Source of the DNA: Planctomycetota bacterium
Lineage (GTDB): Bacteria > Planctomycetota > UBA8742 > UBA2392
Direction of reading: 5' to 3'
DNA: 64,000 nt
Assembly (NCBI GenBank): GCA_020845475.1
Contig: JADLFN010000026.1
Location: 7,080-71,079, forward strand
The notes beneath the pieces are model-generated. The model saw only the letters and a program-made list of their open reading frames with translations. It was not told the DNA's origin and searched no databases. This document shows, piece after piece, positions 1-7,333 of this stretch; the first letter of the stretch is position 1; each line of letters begins with the position of its first letter. Both the position numbers and the translations under genes were made by a program.

Positions 1-546
1 AGCCCTGATTTCGATGCGCCGATGGTGGCCGCAAACGAGATTCTCGAGTTCGAGGTTACAGTCACCGATGACCGCGGCGACTTCACGACCGATCGCGTGC
101 AGGTGACTGTCGAAGAGAATCTGCCGCCCGTCGCCAACGCCGGGCCCGACCAGGGCGCAATGTTCACGTCTCTCGTTCAGCTCAGCGGCAGCGGCAGCAC
201 GGACCCGAACACCGGCGACGTGCTGACGTATTCCTGGACGCAGATCTCCGGCACGAGCGTCACGCTCAGCGGCGCCAACACGGCATTCCCGTCGTTCGTC
301 ACCGGAGGCGGAGACGCGACCTTCGTGTTCGAACTGACCGTGACCGATTCGCTGGGCCTGACCTCGACCGATCAAGTGCGCGTGGTCGTAAACAAGAACG
401 GCATCATCGGCAGTGGGGGAGGCGGCGGCGACAAAGGCGACGGCGGCTGCACCACCGGCGAGTCAGTGGGGGTGCTGTGGCTTGCGGCCCTGATGTTGAC
501 GTTGCTGCTCAGGCGCACACGCAGGGAGAAGGCATTCGCACGTTGA
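1..546 (+). CDS. C-terminal part of a secreted PKD/Ig-like repeat protein ending in a Gly-run/Cys/TM/basic tail (5' end outside the window)
   Basis: The frame is open from base 1 (agc cct gat ttc ...); track ORF 22..546. Repeated modules EFEVTVTDDRGDFTTDRVQVTV and FVFELTVTDSLGLTSTDQVRVVV plus the linker PPVANAGPDQ are typical of PKD-type repeats. Tail: GSGGGGGDKGDGGC-TTGESVGVLWLAALMLTLLL-RRTRRE. Confidence 0.75.
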   Translation, partial: SPDFDAPMVAANEILEFEVTVTDDRGDFTTDRVQVTVEENLPPVANAGPDQGAMFTSLVQLSGSGSTDPNTGDVLTYSWTQISGTSVTLSGANTAFPSFVTGGGDATFVFELTVTDSLGLTSTDQVRVVVNKNGIIGSGGGGGDKGDGGCTTGESVGVLWLAALMLTLLLRRTRREKAFAR

Positions 547-1645: not shown

Positions 1646-2167
1646 ATGGCCGAATTTCGCCTGAGCATGCGCGCTATTGAACGCGGCGAGAAGCCGCGCC
1701 GTGCCCGCGCGCCCAAAGTGGTGAAACCGCCACGGCCGCTGAGCCAGTTGCGCAAGCGAGGCTACCCCAAAGATTGGGCCAAAATCAGCAGGCGCGTGCG
1801 CTTTGAGCGCGCCAAAGGCATCTGCGAGAACTGCGGCAAGCGCCACGGCGAGATTGTGTATCAGGGCCCGCAGGGATCATGGCAACGCGACGGCAAGTGG
1901 TTTGACGCCAACGGGAAACCCATCGATGCGCCGCCGCCGTGGCCAAGCCGCCAATGGTGGGACCATTTGCGGCACTACGGTGACCCGCCGCATATCAAGC
2001 GCGTCAAAGTCATCCTGCACACGGCGCACCTCGACCACAACCCAAGCAACTGCGCCGATGAAAACCTGGCCGCGTTCTGCCAGGCCTGTCATTTGAGATA
2101 CGACGAGGGCCTGCACCGCTGGACCTGGGGATCACGCGGGATCTCTCCCGCGGACAAAGAGTTCTAG
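1646..2167 (+). CDS. HNH endonuclease (phage-type, stand-alone)
   Basis: 173 aa. CENCGKRHG ... HTAHLDHNPSNCADENLAAFCQACHLRYD gives a Cys pair plus an H-N-H core. Confidence 0.8.
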   Translation: MAEFRLSMRAIERGEKPRRARAPKVVKPPRPLSQLRKRGYPKDWAKISRRVRFERAKGICENCGKRHGEIVYQGPQGSWQRDGKWFDANGKPIDAPPPWPSRQWWDHLRHYGDPPHIKRVKVILHTAHLDHNPSNCADENLAAFCQACHLRYDEGLHRWTWGSRGISPADKEF

Positions 2168-2229: not shown

Positions 2230-3303
2230 ATGGCAACAACTAAGCGTGAACTATTTATTCAGGACGAGCTTGGCGACGAACACGTAGTCGTCCCATTCAA
2301 GTACGCGATAACCAGTTACGGTGCCGACTACGACGTCCGCGGCATTGTGCACAGAATTAAGGACGAGGACATTTACGTACCGCGATTTCAGCGCGGCTAT
2401 GTGTGGAACTACCATCAAGCGTCGCGATTTATTGAGACGCTCTTGCTCGGCTTACCGGTACCGGGCATTTTCTTGGCCCGCGAGGCAGAGACAAATCGAC
2501 TTTTGGTCGTAGATGGTCAACAACGACTGAAGACCTTGCTCTTCTTCTATGAGGGCGTGTTTGGACCAAATGAGCGGGCGTTCTCGCTAGTTGACGTTCA
2601 GGAACAATTTGAAGGACTCTCCTACAAGAAGCTTGATCAGCAGGACCGCCGCCGCCTTGACGACTCAATCCTGCACGCCACGGTTATCAAGCAAGACGTT
2701 CCCTCGGAGGATGACAGTAGCATCTACCACGTGTTCGAGAGGCTGAACACAGGTGGTACGCGATTGCAGCCCCAAGAAATACGGGCCTGTATCTACCACG
2801 GAGAATTTAATGAAGCCCTAGATGATCTAAACAAGACGAAATCCTGGCGATCGATCTTTGGCGCTGTAAACAAACGGATGAGAGACAAGGAGTTGATCCT
2901 GCGCTACTTTGCGTTGCTTTACCACTCCAACAGCTATAAGCGCCCAATGGTCGAATTCCTCAACCGGTACATGGGTGCCAATCGACATCTCCAGAAGCAA
3001 CAGTTTGGACAACTAAGGACTGACTTCGTCGAAGTAATTGACATCGTATTCGAATCGGTCGGGAAACGTGCATTCAAGCCCGAGCGCGCATTCAATGCCG
3101 CCGTGTTCGACTCGGTCATGGTCGGCATTTCCAGGCGCCTGAGCAACGGGCGAATTAGCAAGATTACAGATGTTGGCAGCAAGTACCGTGAACTGATCAA
3201 AGATGCAGATTTTCAGGAGGTATGCAGCACTTCGACCTCTCAAGAGGATCGCCTCGAAAAGAGACTGAAGATCGCGACAAGGTACTTTCACGAGGTCGAT
3301 TAG
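2230..3303 (+). CDS. DUF262 (ParB/GmrSD N-terminal-like) domain protein
   Basis: 357 aa. PRFQRGYVWNYHQASRFIETLLLGLPVPGIFL...LLVVDGQQRLKTL matches the DUF262 signature including DGQQRL. No DUF1524/HNH C-terminal domain is seen. The gene is more AT-rich than its flanks by eye. Confidence 0.85.
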   Translation: MATTKRELFIQDELGDEHVVVPFKYAITSYGADYDVRGIVHRIKDEDIYVPRFQRGYVWNYHQASRFIETLLLGLPVPGIFLAREAETNRLLVVDGQQRLKTLLFFYEGVFGPNERAFSLVDVQEQFEGLSYKKLDQQDRRRLDDSILHATVIKQDVPSEDDSSIYHVFERLNTGGTRLQPQEIRACIYHGEFNEALDDLNKTKSWRSIFGAVNKRMRDKELILRYFALLYHSNSYKRPMVEFLNRYMGANRHLQKQQFGQLRTDFVEVIDIVFESVGKRAFKPERAFNAAVFDSVMVGISRRLSNGRISKITDVGSKYRELIKDADFQEVCSTSTSQEDRLEKRLKIATRYFHEVD

Positions 3304-3758
3304 TGCATCCGGACATAGTCGCGCATCAGTCACGTCTGAAATCGACTTTGGCCTTCGCACAGAAGTTAGTCGATGCCGAAGCACAGGGGCATTTTGCTCG
3401 TTACATTTGTGTTCTGACTTCTGGGTTTATCGAACAAGCGATTCGAGTGCATTTTGGTGCCTACGCCCAAATCCATGCCTCTCCTGAACTCGTTCGATTC
3501 ATCTCGAAGGAGTTGGAGACATTTCAAAACCCCAAAGTAGGCAAGGTCATTGCTCTCTTGCAAAAGTTCAGCGAGGACTGGGCGAGGGAAGTGCAAAGTG
3601 GAATCGAGGGACGCATCGGCGACCATATCGATAGTATCGTCGCTAGACGCCACGAGATAGCGCACGGAAAACCTAGCGGCCTCAGCTTGGGCACCGCTAC
3701 AGAGTACCTAAAGAGTGCGTTCGAATTCCTTGAGGTTATCTGCAGCAAGTGTGCCTAG
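3303..3758 (+). CDS. small HEPN-domain protein (MAE_28990-like; Rx4-6H motif)
   Basis: In-frame GTG at 3303 overlaps the DUF262 stop (TAGTG), suggesting translational coupling. The protein is all-helical with ARRHEIAHGKP near the C-terminal third, which fits the HEPN Rx4-6H motif. The track ORF starts earlier (3222) inside the upstream gene. Confidence 0.7.
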   Translation: MHPDIVAHQSRLKSTLAFAQKLVDAEAQGHFARYICVLTSGFIEQAIRVHFGAYAQIHASPELVRFISKELETFQNPKVGKVIALLQKFSEDWAREVQSGIEGRIGDHIDSIVARRHEIAHGKPSGLSLGTATEYLKSAFEFLEVICSKCA

Positions 3759-3974
3759 TACGATTCTAGCCCTCAGACCCCCTACGTCCGATAATCAGTG
3801 TTATGTGCGGTTGGGGGTCCGAGGGGGCTGCTGCCAGCCGTCTGGCTCTGCTGGCTGGTTTGGCGCCGATTGACGGTCACGGGTTGCTGCTTTGCTTGCC
3901 TGCGGCCGAGTTTACTTCACCGGCTTGGGCATTCGGGAGTTAAACTGGCACTTTGCCCCGACTCTCGGCCCCAA

Positions 3975-5237
3975 TTGAGGCTTTCCTTGGCTTCTAAATC
4001 GATCCTGGCGCTTTTCGCCCTGTGTGCCGCTTTGCTGGCGGCTTCCACGCTGGCTGCTGCTACTTTGAACGTGACGCTCAGCGGCGCCTCGCCCGCGAAC
4101 TTCGAAAACCGGCTCAGCGACACTTCCATTGAGGTCACGCGCTTTGTGCTAACCTCAACTGGCGCTTCCGTGGATTGTTCGGCCGTGACTATCACGTTTA
4201 CGAACCCAACCACGGCCGACGAAGCTTTCACCGCCGTGCGCGTGTTCTATGACGCCAACGGCAACTCCAGTTTCGAAGCCGGCGAAGAAATCGGCGTCGG
4301 CCAGGCGCCCAACGGCGTAGCCGCGACACTGTTGTTCACCGGCGCGTTCAGCGTGCCCACCAGTTCGCGCCTGATGCAGGTGATTGTCAACACCGGCGCC
4401 AATGTGGCCAGTTACGGCGACGGGTTTCGTTTCAGCATCGCGGCGGCTGGCGATATCACGCTGGCGAATCCCGGCACCGATAGCGTCACGGGTGCGTTTC
4501 CCGTTCAAGGGAACACGATCACCATCCGCAACAGCATGTCCAATCTGCTGGCGGGCACGGGCAATCCCGCATCGCCGCGCACCGTGGCTCGCGGAAGCAC
4601 CAACGTTGCCGGGGCGCACTTTCGCCTTGACTGTCTGGCGGCCGTGATTCCCGGCGAGCTGGTAGGTCTTGACCTGTCAAGCATCACCGTCAGCCTCAAC
4701 CTCGGCGCACCCGCCGATGCCAACGTGATTGCTTCGGTCAGCCTGTTCGGCGACGATTTCGATGCCGCGTTTGAGCCCAACACACAAGACCCGCTGATCC
4801 AGGCGCGCACCAGCGCCGACGTCGCCAAGTGGGCGGTGGCCGGCAGCACCTTGACGGTCATCTTCGACGGCGCGGCTGTCACGGCGCTTACTTCGATCAA
4901 TTCGGGCACCGTGCGCGCCTTCTGGATTGGCGTGAGTTTCAACAGCACGGCCGACGCTGTCGTGGAAGTGCTGGTCAATCGCACCGGAATTCTCGGGGCC
5001 GAAGGCGCAAGCGGCGATTTCCTGACCACCGCGATCACCAGCATCAGCGGCAACGTGATTACCGTCAGTGGAAGCGGCGGCGGCGGAGGTGACGGCGGCC
5101 AGGGCAATCGGCCCTCGGAAGAGGGCGGCTGTGTTGTCTCCCCCACTGGCTCATGGGCGCCGGGGATGTTGCTTTGCATGCTGGCGGCGGGCTTCTGGTT
5201 TGTGCGTAAGCGTAGCCGGCCCAATTCCACTACTTAG
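3975..5237 (+). CDS. secreted protein of unknown function with a Gly-run/Cys/TM/basic C-terminal tail
   Basis: Track ORF 3798..5237 (GTG). The signal-peptide-like stretch SKSILALFALCAALLAASTLAAA follows an in-frame TTG at 3975, so the start is uncertain. Tail: SGSGGGGGDGGQGNRPSEEGGC-VVSPTGSWAPGMLLCMLAAGFWFV-RKRSR. Confidence 0.6.
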   Translation: MRLSLASKSILALFALCAALLAASTLAAATLNVTLSGASPANFENRLSDTSIEVTRFVLTSTGASVDCSAVTITFTNPTTADEAFTAVRVFYDANGNSSFEAGEEIGVGQAPNGVAATLLFTGAFSVPTSSRLMQVIVNTGANVASYGDGFRFSIAAAGDITLANPGTDSVTGAFPVQGNTITIRNSMSNLLAGTGNPASPRTVARGSTNVAGAHFRLDCLAAVIPGELVGLDLSSITVSLNLGAPADANVIASVSLFGDDFDAAFEPNTQDPLIQARTSADVAKWAVAGSTLTVIFDGAAVTALTSINSGTVRAFWIGVSFNSTADAVVEVLVNRTGILGAEGASGDFLTTAITSISGNVITVSGSGGGGGDGGQGNRPSEEGGCVVSPTGSWAPGMLLCMLAAGFWFVRKRSRPNSTT

Positions 5238-5263: not shown

Positions 5264-6235
5264 ATGAAAGCCACAGCGTTGGGATTGCTGGCCTTGGCGA
5301 GCGTGTTGTTTGCTGGCTCGCTTAGCGCCGTCGCCGTCGGGGAAATGGGCCCCGATTTCAAGTTCGACAAGAGCTGGAACACAATTGAGGGCGCGACCAA
5401 GCTCTCTGACTACCGTGAGCGCGTGGTACTCGTTGAACGATGGGCCACGAACTGAAGCCCCTGCATGCGCGGGGTCCCGCACTTGAATGAACTGAACAAG
5501 AAATACCGCGAACGCGGCTTCGAGATTGTTGCCGTAAGCAGTGAAGCCGCCGGCACCATTGAAGACAAGATGGTCAAAGGGGCAAGCGCCTCCTTTGGAG
5601 TTGTGAAGGCCGATATTGCAGCCCTGTACCAGACCAACGGCATCCCCCACGGCTGGGTTCTTGACGCCGAGGGAAAGTGCATCTGGGAAGGCCACCCGGC
5701 CCAGTTGAACGATGCACAGATCGAAGAGTGGATCAAGGATCTCGCCCCCGGCAAGATCACGCGCGAGGTTCAAAAGCCGCTAAAGGCGTCCGTTGAGGCC
5801 TACAACAAGGGCCAGTTCGGAAAGGCCTTTGAAGCCGTGGCTGAGCACCTGACGTCTGAGGACGCAAAAGTCAAAGCTGACGCTGAATATGTCAACGGCG
5901 TGATCGAGAAGCGCAAAGCAGCAGGCGAGGCCAAGGCCAAGAAACTGCGCGACGCCGGCGATCTCGTCAAGCTGCTGCCGGTCCTTGAAGAAGAGGCCAA
6001 GGGCTGGGAAGGCAGCGAATACGGCAAGGCCTGCGGCGACGAAGCCAAGACGGTCAAGGCGAGCAAGGAATACAAGCTCTGCGCCAAAGCCGCCGACGCA
6101 TGGGCCAAGCTCGAGCCCAAGCTCAATGACCTTGCCGACGACAAAGCCGCCAAGGCGCTTGAGAAGTTCATCAAAGATTTCGCCGGAACGCCCCAGGCCA
6201 AGCTTGCCGAAGAGAGACTCAAAGACCTCAAATAG
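5264..6235 (+). CDS. periplasmic thioredoxin-fold (TlpA/ResA/redoxin-like) protein, predicted selenoprotein with UGA-Sec at 5453..5455 (U-S-P-C)
   Basis: ORFs 5264..5455 and 5465..6235 share a frame and are separated only by TGA agc ccc tgc. The read-through LSDYRERVVLVERWATN-U-SPC-MRGVPHLNELNKKYRERGFEIVAVS aligns with the FWATWCxPC redoxin motif. There is a signal peptide (MKATALGLLALASVLFAGSLSA) and a GGAGAGG Shine-Dalgarno-like sequence upstream. Confidence 0.8.
5458..5474 (+). promoter_or_regulatory. candidate bacterial SECIS-like hairpin 3 nt downstream of the UGA
   Basis: CCCCUG-CAUG-CG(C)GGGG: pairs 5458-5474, 5459-5473, 5460-5472, 5461-5471, 5462-5469 (GU), 5463-5468; loop 5464..5467. 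The same CUG-CAUG-CGG core follows the paralogue's UGA. Confidence 0.4.
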
Positions 6236-6249
6236 CCGGTGATTCAACG

Positions 6250-6282
6250 CGCCCGCCGGCAAAAGAGCTGGCGGGCGTTTTC
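6250..6282 (+). terminator. rho-independent terminator after the first selenoprotein gene
   Basis: CGCCCGCC (6250..6257) pairs with GGCGGGCG (6270..6277) and is followed by TTTT. Confidence 0.7.
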
Positions 6283-6307
6283 ATTCCTCTGGGCAAAGGG
6301 GACAGCA

Positions 6308-7282
6308 ATGAAGACGATGTTTCTAGCCGCGTGTTTGGCGCTGTACGCCACGACGCTTGCGGCCATGGACAAGGGCGAAGAAGCTCCCAACTTCAAGTTC
6401 GAGGCAAGCTGGAACACACTGCCCGGCGCGAAGCAGCTCACGGATTACCGCGGCAGAATTGTATTCCTCGAGATCTGGAAGATTCACTGAGAGCCCTGCA
6501 TGCGGTTTCTCCCGCACCTCGTTGAGGTAAATGAGAAGTATCGCGACAAAGGCGTCGAAATCATCATGGCCACGGACGTTGACAAGGCGCCCGAGCTTGA
6601 GAAATTCATCGCTGATAAGAAGCTCAAGCTTGGCGTCGCGCGCGTTGTGGACGTCTACAAGCTCGTCAAGGCCCAGGGCTACCCCACCAGCTACGGCATC
6701 GACGTTGACGGCAACTGCATCTGGCGCGGCCACCCGCAGGGGCTGAACGACGCGTTAGTGGATGGCTGGCTCAAAGACCTGCGCGCGCCCAAGATCCCGC
6801 GCAAGCTCAGTGATGCGCTTGGCGCGGCTGTGAGCGCATACGACAACGGCCAGTACGGTGGAGCGCTCAATGCGCTCGAAAAGCCGCTCAAACACAAGGA
6901 CGAGAAGGTCAAGGCTGACGCGCAGTACATCGCCGATCTGCTCAACGGCCGCCTCGAGATGAACAAGGCTGCCGCCAAGATCTACCGCGACAGCGGCGAA
7001 CTGGAGAAGCTCGTGGCGCTGCTCGAGGGCGACGCCAAGGACTTTGGCGGTATCGACTACGCCAAAGATTGCGCCAGCGAAGCCAAGAAGACCAAGGCCA
7101 GCAAGGCCTACAAGCAATGCGTCGAAGCGCGCGAGAAACTGGAGAAGCTGAAGCCCGGCCTCAAAGACATGAAGCCCGCAGATGCCGCCAAGGCCCTCAA
7201 CAAGCTCGCGAAAGAATTCGCCGATACGCCCGCAGGCAAGCAGGCCGCAGAATTGGCCAAGGAATACGAAGAGAAAAAGTAG
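6308..7282 (+). CDS. paralogous periplasmic thioredoxin-fold protein, predicted selenoprotein with UGA-Sec at 6488..6490 (U-E-P-C)
   Basis: ORFs 6239..6490 and 6500..7282 share a frame. Read-through: LTDYRGRIVFLEIWKIH-U-EPC-MRFLPHLVEVNEKYRDKGVEIIMATD. The likely start is ATG 6308 (MKTMFLAACLALYATTLAA signal peptide). It has the same C-terminal Lys/Ala/Glu-rich helical domain as 5264..6235. Confidence 0.8.
6491..6511 (+). promoter_or_regulatory. candidate bacterial SECIS-like hairpin immediately after the UGA
   Basis: GAG-cc-CUG-CAUG-CGG-uuu-CUC: outer pairs 6491-6511, 6492-6510, 6493-6509; inner pairs 6496-6505, 6497-6504 (GU), 6498-6503; loop 6499..6502. Confidence 0.4.
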
Positions 7283-7309: not shown

Positions 7310-7333
7310 AGGGGCGACAAAGATGTCGCCCCT
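7310..7333. repeat. REP-like palindrome AGGGGCGAC-AAAGAT-GTCGCCCCT
   Basis: Read directly. It has the same arms as the 28-mer at 567 and 55480, and is intergenic between 7282 and 7350. Confidence 0.85.

Follow-up and report, generated by a model that had tools for sequence, protein, structure and literature searches.

Selenoproteins in which selenocysteine (Sec, U) forms part of a UxxC redox motif are established in prokaryotes, and a catalogue of the prokaryotic selenoproteome lists both TlpA-like or thiol-disulfide isomerase-like members (cd02966) and peroxiredoxin (Prx)-like thiol:disulfide oxidoreductase members (PF00578) that carry it (PMC13188914). Here we describe two genes, A and B, that lie head to tail on the forward strand of a planctomycete contig (Planctomycetota bacterium, assembly GCA_020845475.1, contig JADLFN010000026.1, positions 7,080 to 71,079; this stretch of 64,000 nucleotides is the window referred to below), each of which consists of one reading frame broken by a single TGA (Table 1). 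We consider it very likely that A and B are genuine, functional, tandemly duplicated UxxC selenoprotein genes. The direct basis for this conclusion is the integrity of the genes, the conservation of the UGA, the pairing of Sec-containing proteins with cysteine (Cys) homologues, purifying selection, the protein fold and the conservation of the hairpin in gene B, while Sec insertion, cellular location, redox direction and substrate are what we infer. Like the catalogued proteins, the predicted products combine a TlpA/redoxin-type fold with Sec in place of the first Cys of a CxxC motif, and they likewise have Cys homologues and a candidate bacterial Sec insertion sequence (bSECIS) within the coding region just after the UGA. 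They appear to differ in an added helical C-terminal domain of approximately 160 amino acids (aa), and in forming a narrow clade within Planctomycetota in which two paralogues of ancient origin have both kept Sec. As a kind, these proteins are already known, and the A/B family is a fairly ordinary addition; what is new is a two-domain subfamily restricted to Planctomycetota that the curated models have missed.

Among solved structures, Bacillus subtilis ResA and rhizobial TlpA match best in both sequence and fold; they are extracytoplasmic proteins, as the A and B products are predicted to be. ResA is a thiol-disulfide oxidoreductase of cytochrome c maturation with the active site C-E-P-C, which agrees with the names of its variants in the PDB, and the U-E-P-C of gene B is the Sec version of this motif. 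In contrast to ResA, A and B have Sec for Cys, an added helical domain and what appears to be a cleavable signal peptide instead of a membrane anchor, and they lack cytochrome c biogenesis genes nearby. A second related group is the VPGUxxT type 1 family (NF041382; related to 'hypothetical protein OS_HP5'), which has the same architecture of a Sec-containing thioredoxin-like domain followed by a helical domain of approximately 170 aa. The C-terminal domains are homologous, with the C-terminal half of the NF041382 profile (positions 173-345 of 349) matching A at E 7.8e-18 and B at E 1.4e-15, whereas the active-site motif of A and B is W-x-x-x-U-x-P-C and not V-P-G-U-x-x-T, and their N-terminal domains do not match the model. 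Scanning A and B against NCBIfam returned no model at its curated cut-off, including those of the ResA, VPGUxxT and WAxxUGC families: NF002854 (ResA) scored 71.8 and 69.0 bits against a cut-off of 170, NF041382 scored 64.9 and 57.5 bits against 350, with its V-P-G-U-x-x-T motif absent, and NF041054 (ResA-like with a WAxxUGC motif) scored 29.7 and 15.8 bits against 300. A and B are ResA-like proteins and not ResA. Escherichia coli CnoX/YbbN offers a further analogy, since it also joins a thioredoxin-fold domain to a TPR-like helical domain that could hold clients, but CnoX is cytoplasmic and without Sec, and its structural match (Foldseek, 3qou; E 0.5, TM-score 0.19) is not significant, so the likeness is one of analogy only.

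When translated through the TGA, gene A reads ...ERWATN-U-SPC-MRGVPH... and gene B, from the ATG at 6308, reads ...EIWKIH-U-EPC-MRFLPH.... With U written as C, the two read-through proteins are 43% identical over 315 residues (E 4e-90) and their TGAs fall in the same alignment column, flanked by 20 identical residues among the 38 before U and 15 among the 30 after it. An earlier reading of this DNA, made from its letters only (hereafter the sequence-only reading), had proposed that a TGA shared by two diverged paralogues at the homologous codon specifies Sec and does not mark pseudogenes, and the shared column is as that reading had described it. It had also joined the open reading frames (ORFs) 6239..6490 and 6500..7282 into one frame, and the TGA at 6488..6490 is indeed all that separates them. 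The terminator that it had placed between the genes at 6250..6282 was recovered as a 12-bp stem (6249..6278) followed by TTTC. Because this hairpin lies between A and B, we assigned the start of gene B to the ATG at 6308 and not to the GTG at 6239 that begins the mechanical ORF. A perfect 10-bp GC-rich hairpin also lies directly 3' of the gene B stop (7310..7333; -22 kcal/mol in a 41-nucleotide (nt) context); it has no T-run, hence its absence from the terminator scan listing, and it may be a terminator without a T-tract or an mRNA-stabilising element.

Evidence for Sec comes from other genomes. We compared Sec-type copies from 13 GTDB species-representative metagenome-assembled genomes (MAGs; L001-L013) and six JGI metagenome contigs (L018-L020 and L022-L024). 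The Sec-type copies from about 20 other assemblies, 17 of type A and 12 of type B, each have one in-frame stop only, and in 29/29 it is a TGA at the codon homologous to that of A and B; no further stop and no frameshift were found in them. In public databases every copy appears as a truncated protein: the 21 proteins closest to B are all calls of approximately 235-265 aa from Planctomycetota MAGs that start at varied codons past the TGA, and about 45 relatives of A are likewise calls of approximately 255 aa that begin after it. Close full-length homologues have Cys at this position. In L012 and L023, a second tandem type-A copy carries TGC at the UGA column; full-length homologues in the protein database (P0025-P0030) have the motif WATWCGPCM with Cys in the U column, and more distant TlpA-like proteins have WATWCGPC in the same column.

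In a neighbour-joining tree, built without bootstrap, the type-B copies form one Sec-only clade that is sister to type A, and two Cys clades lie inside Sec-type A. This topology suggests that the A/B duplication is older than the divergence of these species and that Sec was kept in both lines. The tandems in L012 (4819..6915) and L023 (173..2200) each consist of a type-A Sec copy followed by the type-A Cys copy with TGC, which suggests that duplication within the clade can precede the switch between Sec and Cys. Tandem arrangements were also seen among distant Cys-type relatives with the motif WATWCPPC on metagenome contigs L025-L029 (27-31% identity over approximately 280 residues), which occur as pairs approximately 1.4 kb apart; tandem duplication seems to be recurrent in this TlpA-like group. 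Three type-B Sec genes stand without a type-A copy directly upstream (L005 6001..6912, L006 6001..6945 and L022 1838..2737), and those in L005 and L006 are also without the usual neighbour genes.

We estimated selection by the Nei-Gojobori method, comparing the window genes with their orthologues over three segments each. Orthologues and not the two paralogues were used because synonymous sites are saturated at the 43% identity between A and B; even among orthologues dS is near saturation, so the ratios dN/dS (omega) given here are approximate. The proportion of non-synonymous differences (pN) was far below that of synonymous differences (pS) in all three segments of both genes. Within the 40 codons upstream of the TGA in gene B, dN was 0.05-0.08 for most orthologues and up to 0.21 for L005 and L006, against a pS of 0.6-0.8, and omega was 0.07-0.21 in the downstream part of the thioredoxin domain and 0.11-0.5 in the helical domain. 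Gene A showed an omega of 0.1-0.3 upstream of the TGA and otherwise behaved like B. Overall, omega was far below 1 on both sides of the TGA, at about 0.05-0.2 in the upstream part and 0.07-0.2 in the part that directly follows. These values bear directly on the possibility that both genes are pseudogenes, in which independent nonsense mutations changed the catalytic Cys codon (TGC or TGT) to TGA. The step from TGC to TGA needs one base change, and in public annotation the TGA is always taken as a stop. However, synonymous differences greatly outnumber non-synonymous ones both before and after the codon, and the TGA is kept at the same position in all 29 copies, with no second lesion, in species whose proteins are now only 36-83% identical. 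Between A and B, the 38-residue segment upstream of U is 53% identical, which is above the whole-protein value. We regard the pseudogene explanation as having almost no chance of being right, and the proposal that the TGA encodes Sec, as the sequence-only reading had it, is upheld by the orthologue TGAs, dN/dS, the Cys homologues and the SECIS-like hairpins described below.

A different explanation takes the TGA as a true stop, so that each locus would yield a short secreted N-terminal peptide and a re-initiated cytoplasmic protein of approximately 255 aa. An ATG does follow four codons past the TGA in both window genes, and gene callers use that or later starts, but the fourth codon is ATG, ATC, ATA, ATT, CAG or GTG among the orthologues, which indicates that no re-initiation codon is conserved, and the annotated starts vary between genomes. 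Such a split would moreover fall within the active site of the thioredoxin fold, and the catalytic domain would lose both its first strands and its signal peptide, whereas the Cys homologues are single full-length proteins. It is therefore highly improbable that A and B are split genes. The genetic code itself appears conventional: among 47 confident genes of the window, 22 end in TGA, more than in any other stop, which indicates that it has not been reassigned. A scan of the window for further ORF-TGA-ORF pairs with coding-like G+C content at third codon positions (GC3) gave no other candidate with a redox motif, which leaves A and B as the only selenoprotein candidates in the window.

We also examined the RNA downstream of each UGA. 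In the published bSECIS model, an upper stem of 4 bp or more carries an apical loop of 3-9 nt in which one of the first two nucleotides is G, the loop lies 16-37 nt from the UGA and the minimum free energy (MFE) is -7.5 kcal/mol or lower (PMC13188914). The hairpin of gene B, ACCUC-[GUU]-GAGGU, agrees with this model in every respect, with a 3-nt loop, a 5-bp upper stem, a position 30 nt after the UGA and, when the lower stem is included, an MFE of -10.9 kcal/mol. Its five core pairs form in essentially all of 11 distinct type-B sequences, and the pair that closes the loop (33:37) is C:G in 8, G:C in 3 and mixed or broken in 0; this pair swap couples a synonymous change of Leu CUC to CUG with a change of Glu GAG to Gln CAG. 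In addition, no part of the type-B genes varies less at synonymous sites than the 25 codons that follow the UGA, with differences of 0.17-0.25 compared with about 0.4 in the remainder of the gene. The candidate in gene A, GCGG-[GGUC]-CCGC, has its loop 17 nt after the UGA and a free energy of -6.5 kcal/mol for the 16-nt segment. Most type-A orthologues have GGGG-[GUU]-CCCC or GGUC-loop hairpins 17-18 nt after the UGA, formed by Gly-Val-Pro codons, and the type-A copy of L012 has AUGGGGC-[AGGU]-GCCCCAU (-11.9 kcal/mol). The Cys paralogue has Asn-Ile-Pro at the hairpin site and no hairpin there, an absence that is suggestive of a SECIS role for the type-A hairpins. The hairpins of A and B are built from different codons, with the loop at +17 in A arising from G-V-P codons and the loop at +30 in B from L-V-E/Q-V codons. 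Hairpins of bSECIS geometry at -4 kcal/mol or better occurred at 80% of Sec sites and in 20% of control windows from the same genes, an enrichment that, coming from related sequences, does not amount to a formal probability.

Several observations weigh against Sec decoding. The stem of the gene A hairpin is only 4 bp, and the MFE fold prefers CCCCUGC/GCGGGG (-10.9 kcal/mol), a pairing that places its loop just 9 nt past the UGA. A good hairpin of the model type is missing from the nearest type-A relatives (L001, L002, L019 and L020), synonymous variation in type A does not fall after the UGA, and RNAalifold on type A returned a consensus of only 3 bp. Because the gene A stem consists of Gly and Pro codons, coding and RNA constraint are inseparable there. 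For gene B, the covariation consists of one base pair in related sequences. Folds of the 60 nt after the UGA were no more stable than shuffled sequences (z-scores of -0.4 and -0.9), so that thermodynamics by itself does not pick out a SECIS and comparative data are needed. ARAGORN found no tRNA, hence no tRNA-Sec, in the window, where no Rfam family was found either, and no tRNA in 14 related loci (L001-L014); a Pfam scan of 20 other ORFs of the window recovered ordinary housekeeping genes and no selA, selB or selD. The neighbouring genes give no pointer to a substrate. Lastly, with dS near saturation the omega values are rough, but the direction of selection is unambiguous.

The missing Sec machinery in the window (tRNA scan and 20 ORFs by Pfam) and the modest thermodynamic support for the SECIS elements would fit a UGA that is decoded as a standard amino acid, be it Trp, Cys or Gly, through near-cognate suppression or a reassigned code. 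The frequent use of TGA as the normal stop in the window opposes this explanation, as does the nature of the recoded site, which is the redox-active Cys of CxxC and is Cys in homologues; this is a signature of Sec and not of leaky termination. Furthermore, gene B has a conserved hairpin with a G-U loop at canonical spacing, and some other Planctomycetes are reported to possess complete sets of genes for Sec insertion (PMC4807772), which makes the Sec trait plausible for the phylum. We judge decoding as a standard amino acid to be very unlikely. Taken together, the comparative, selection, start-codon and stop-usage evidence leaves little room for the pseudogene, split-gene and reassignment explanations, and we continue with Sec as the residue encoded by the UGA.

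To describe the encoded proteins, we combined profile searches with structural models. Pfam AhpC-TSA, Redoxin and Thioredoxin_8 scored above their gathering thresholds in the N-terminal halves of both A and B; AhpC-TSA was the best match, and gene A additionally had a weak GSHPx match. The nearest PDB sequences found by phmmer were a redoxin-domain protein, ResA, DsbE, DipZ and TlpA, and their active-site Cys aligns with U. AlphaFold2 models were made of the gene B fragment after the UGA and of the full-length Cys homologue P0025, and the latter (predicted local distance difference test, pLDDT, 91) matched ResA and DsbE structures with a TM-score of about 0.8 in Foldseek. Pro126 in the cis-Pro loop (GYP/GIP) is invariant in the family, and C137 in DGNCIW is nearly so. 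The active-site motif is U-S-P-C in A and U-E-P-C in B, and most type-A orthologues have U-G-P-C, which is the thioredoxin motif. In the gene B fragment, the C-terminal domain of approximately 160 aa was modelled as a seven-helix bundle (pLDDT about 90); a Pfam search with this region gave no match, and Foldseek gave no significant match, with weak TPR-like resemblance to BamD, YbgF and YbbN. As judged by eye, A, B and all orthologues have N-termini that resemble signal peptides, and that of gene A, with an n-region containing K, a hydrophobic core and a small-residue site, is kept across orthologues. We considered gene B as a lipoprotein on account of 'LAAC' at residues 6-9 and rejected this assignment, as the Cys is too near the N-terminus and is absent from orthologues.

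These domain matches raise the question of whether A and B, as genuine selenoproteins, could instead be Prx- or glutathione peroxidase (GPx)-like enzymes that act against periplasmic peroxides. Many Sec enzymes are peroxidases, AhpC-TSA is the best Pfam match, the GSHPx match of gene A points the same way, and the near-invariance of C137 would suit such an activity. On the other hand, peroxiredoxins have T/S-x-x-C (or TxxU), whereas the W-x-x-x-U-x-P-C of A and B is typical of thioredoxin, TlpA and ResA; among solved structures, ResA, DsbE and TlpA come closest both in sequence and in fold; and the AhpC-TSA and Redoxin models of Pfam routinely match TlpA-like proteins. A peroxidase function is thus unlikely. 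The alternative, that A and B function as periplasmic disulfide reductases, is less certain than their status as selenoproteins, and the periplasmic redox role suggested in the sequence-only reading fits the signal peptides in all orthologues and the ResA/TlpA/DsbE-like fold.

Based on these features, we propose that the UGA in each mRNA would be decoded by Sec-tRNA(Sec) brought by SelB, which in turn would be recruited by the small coding-sequence hairpin just 3' of the UGA, at 17 nt in A and at 30 nt in B, with an apical loop that begins GG or GU. Signal peptides of the Sec secretion type would then direct both products to the planctomycete periplasm, where the selenocysteine of the N-terminal ResA/TlpA/DsbE-like thioredoxin domain would serve as the attacking residue of the CxxC motif. 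The proteins may act as thiol-disulfide reductases or isomerases in which U-x-P-C cycles via a selenenylsulfide with the resolving Cys, and they are presumably kept reduced by a membrane electron donor of the CcdA/DsbD type. By analogy with thioredoxin-TPR proteins, the C-terminal TPR-like helical domain probably binds a client or partner. Genes for CcdA/DsbD or cytochrome c maturation were not found adjacent to the pair, either in the syntenic loci or by Pfam in the window.

The gene order around the pair is conserved in the clade and comprises dapA, a small ORF, a secreted protein of approximately 400 aa (3798..5237), A, B where present, DUF480, a peptide-type ABC transporter and prkA. The secreted protein is the constant upstream neighbour in all syntenic loci and has no Pfam or NCBIfam family; by its position, it is a candidate client of A and B. 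We infer that the periplasmic redox function of the pair may be a dedicated one, as the sequence-only reading had suggested. A stronger version of this idea is that the pair constitutes a lineage-specific, selenium-dependent periplasmic redox module and not a generic TlpA variant. It draws on three observations: Sec has been kept in both paralogues since the ancient duplication, with non-homologous SECIS hairpins; the helical C-terminal domain is common to the VPGUxxT family, whose motif is unrelated; and the secreted protein is always adjacent and could be a dedicated client. We hold this idea to be doubtful. If it were true, it would imply that a SECIS had relocated inside a coding sequence, and the helical domain could be a module for client binding that accompanies Sec-thioredoxin domains outside the cytoplasm.

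Other genes near the pair were noted in passing. The secreted products of 22..546 and 3798..5237 both have C-termini in which a Gly-rich linker and 'GGC' precede a transmembrane helix and a basic cluster, tails that look like a sorting signal of the MYXO-CTERM type, and 22..546 matches the C-terminal end of NF038112, a family of myxosortase-dependent M36 peptidases (E 1.6e-27). The region 2230..3758 contains a GmrSD_N (DUF262) gene with an overlapping or adjacent RiboL-PSP HEPN gene, both with GC3 below that of their neighbours and without counterpart in L001-L013; it looks like a strain-specific insertion of defence-type genes. The conserved small ORF beside dapA (1646..2167) is present in most syntenic loci and has no Pfam family, and its Cys/His-rich product and a weak match, far under the cut-off, to the HNH-like part of ZorE suggest an HNH or zinc-finger nuclease-like protein.

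Table 1. Positions of genes A and B and of their predicted features within the window.
Feature	Position	Strand	Description	Basis
Gene A, predicted exported TlpA/ResA-like selenoprotein	5264..6235	+	323 aa; U is residue 64; motif W-A-T-N-U-S-P-C	Translation, Pfam, orthologues
Gene A putative signal peptide MKATALGLLALASVLFAGSLSAVA	5264..5335	+	Cleavage site putative	Read from sequence
Gene A in-frame TGA, predicted Sec codon	5453..5455	+		TGA in type-A orthologues from 17 assemblies; same column as TGC in copy 2 of L012/L023 and Cys in P0025-P0030
Gene A candidate SECIS hairpin	5467..5482	+	GCGG-[GGUC]-CCGC; weak, with a competing fold	
Intrinsic-terminator-like hairpin between A and B	6249..6282	+	12 pairs (10 GC), 6-nt loop, then TTTC; stem 6249..6278	
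Gene B, predicted exported TlpA/ResA-like selenoprotein	6308..7282	+	324 aa; U is residue 61; motif W-K-I-H-U-E-P-C	Translation, Pfam, PDB sequence search
Gene B putative signal peptide MKTMFLAACLALYATTLAA	6308..6364	+	Cleavage site putative	Sequence and orthologue N-termini
Gene B thioredoxin-fold (TlpA/ResA/DsbE-like) domain	6371..6790	+		Pfam, PDB phmmer, Foldseek on model of Cys homologue
Gene B in-frame TGA, predicted Sec codon	6488..6490	+		TGA in 12/12 type-B orthologues
Gene B candidate SECIS	6503..6543	+	Upper stem ACCUC/GAGGU 6516..6528, apical loop GUU, plus lower stem	
Gene B C-terminal all-helical (TPR-like) domain	6800..7279	+	Approximately 160 aa	AlphaFold2 model; NF041382 C-terminal match

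Although the finding leaves general concepts unchanged, it alters how this family should be read. About 65 database entries, labelled 'hypothetical' or 'TlpA family', are cut short at the N-terminus and lack both the active site and the signal peptide, and reading the UGA as Sec would restore the real proteins and add a subfamily that lies outside every current NCBIfam model. Their hairpins, which sit at different positions, make A and B a convenient natural pair for studies of bacterial SECIS versus coding constraint. The family also provides a clean case of a Sec codon held through duplication and long divergence, beside Cys reversions in sister copies, and points to the use of Sec in the periplasm of an uncultured planctomycete lineage.

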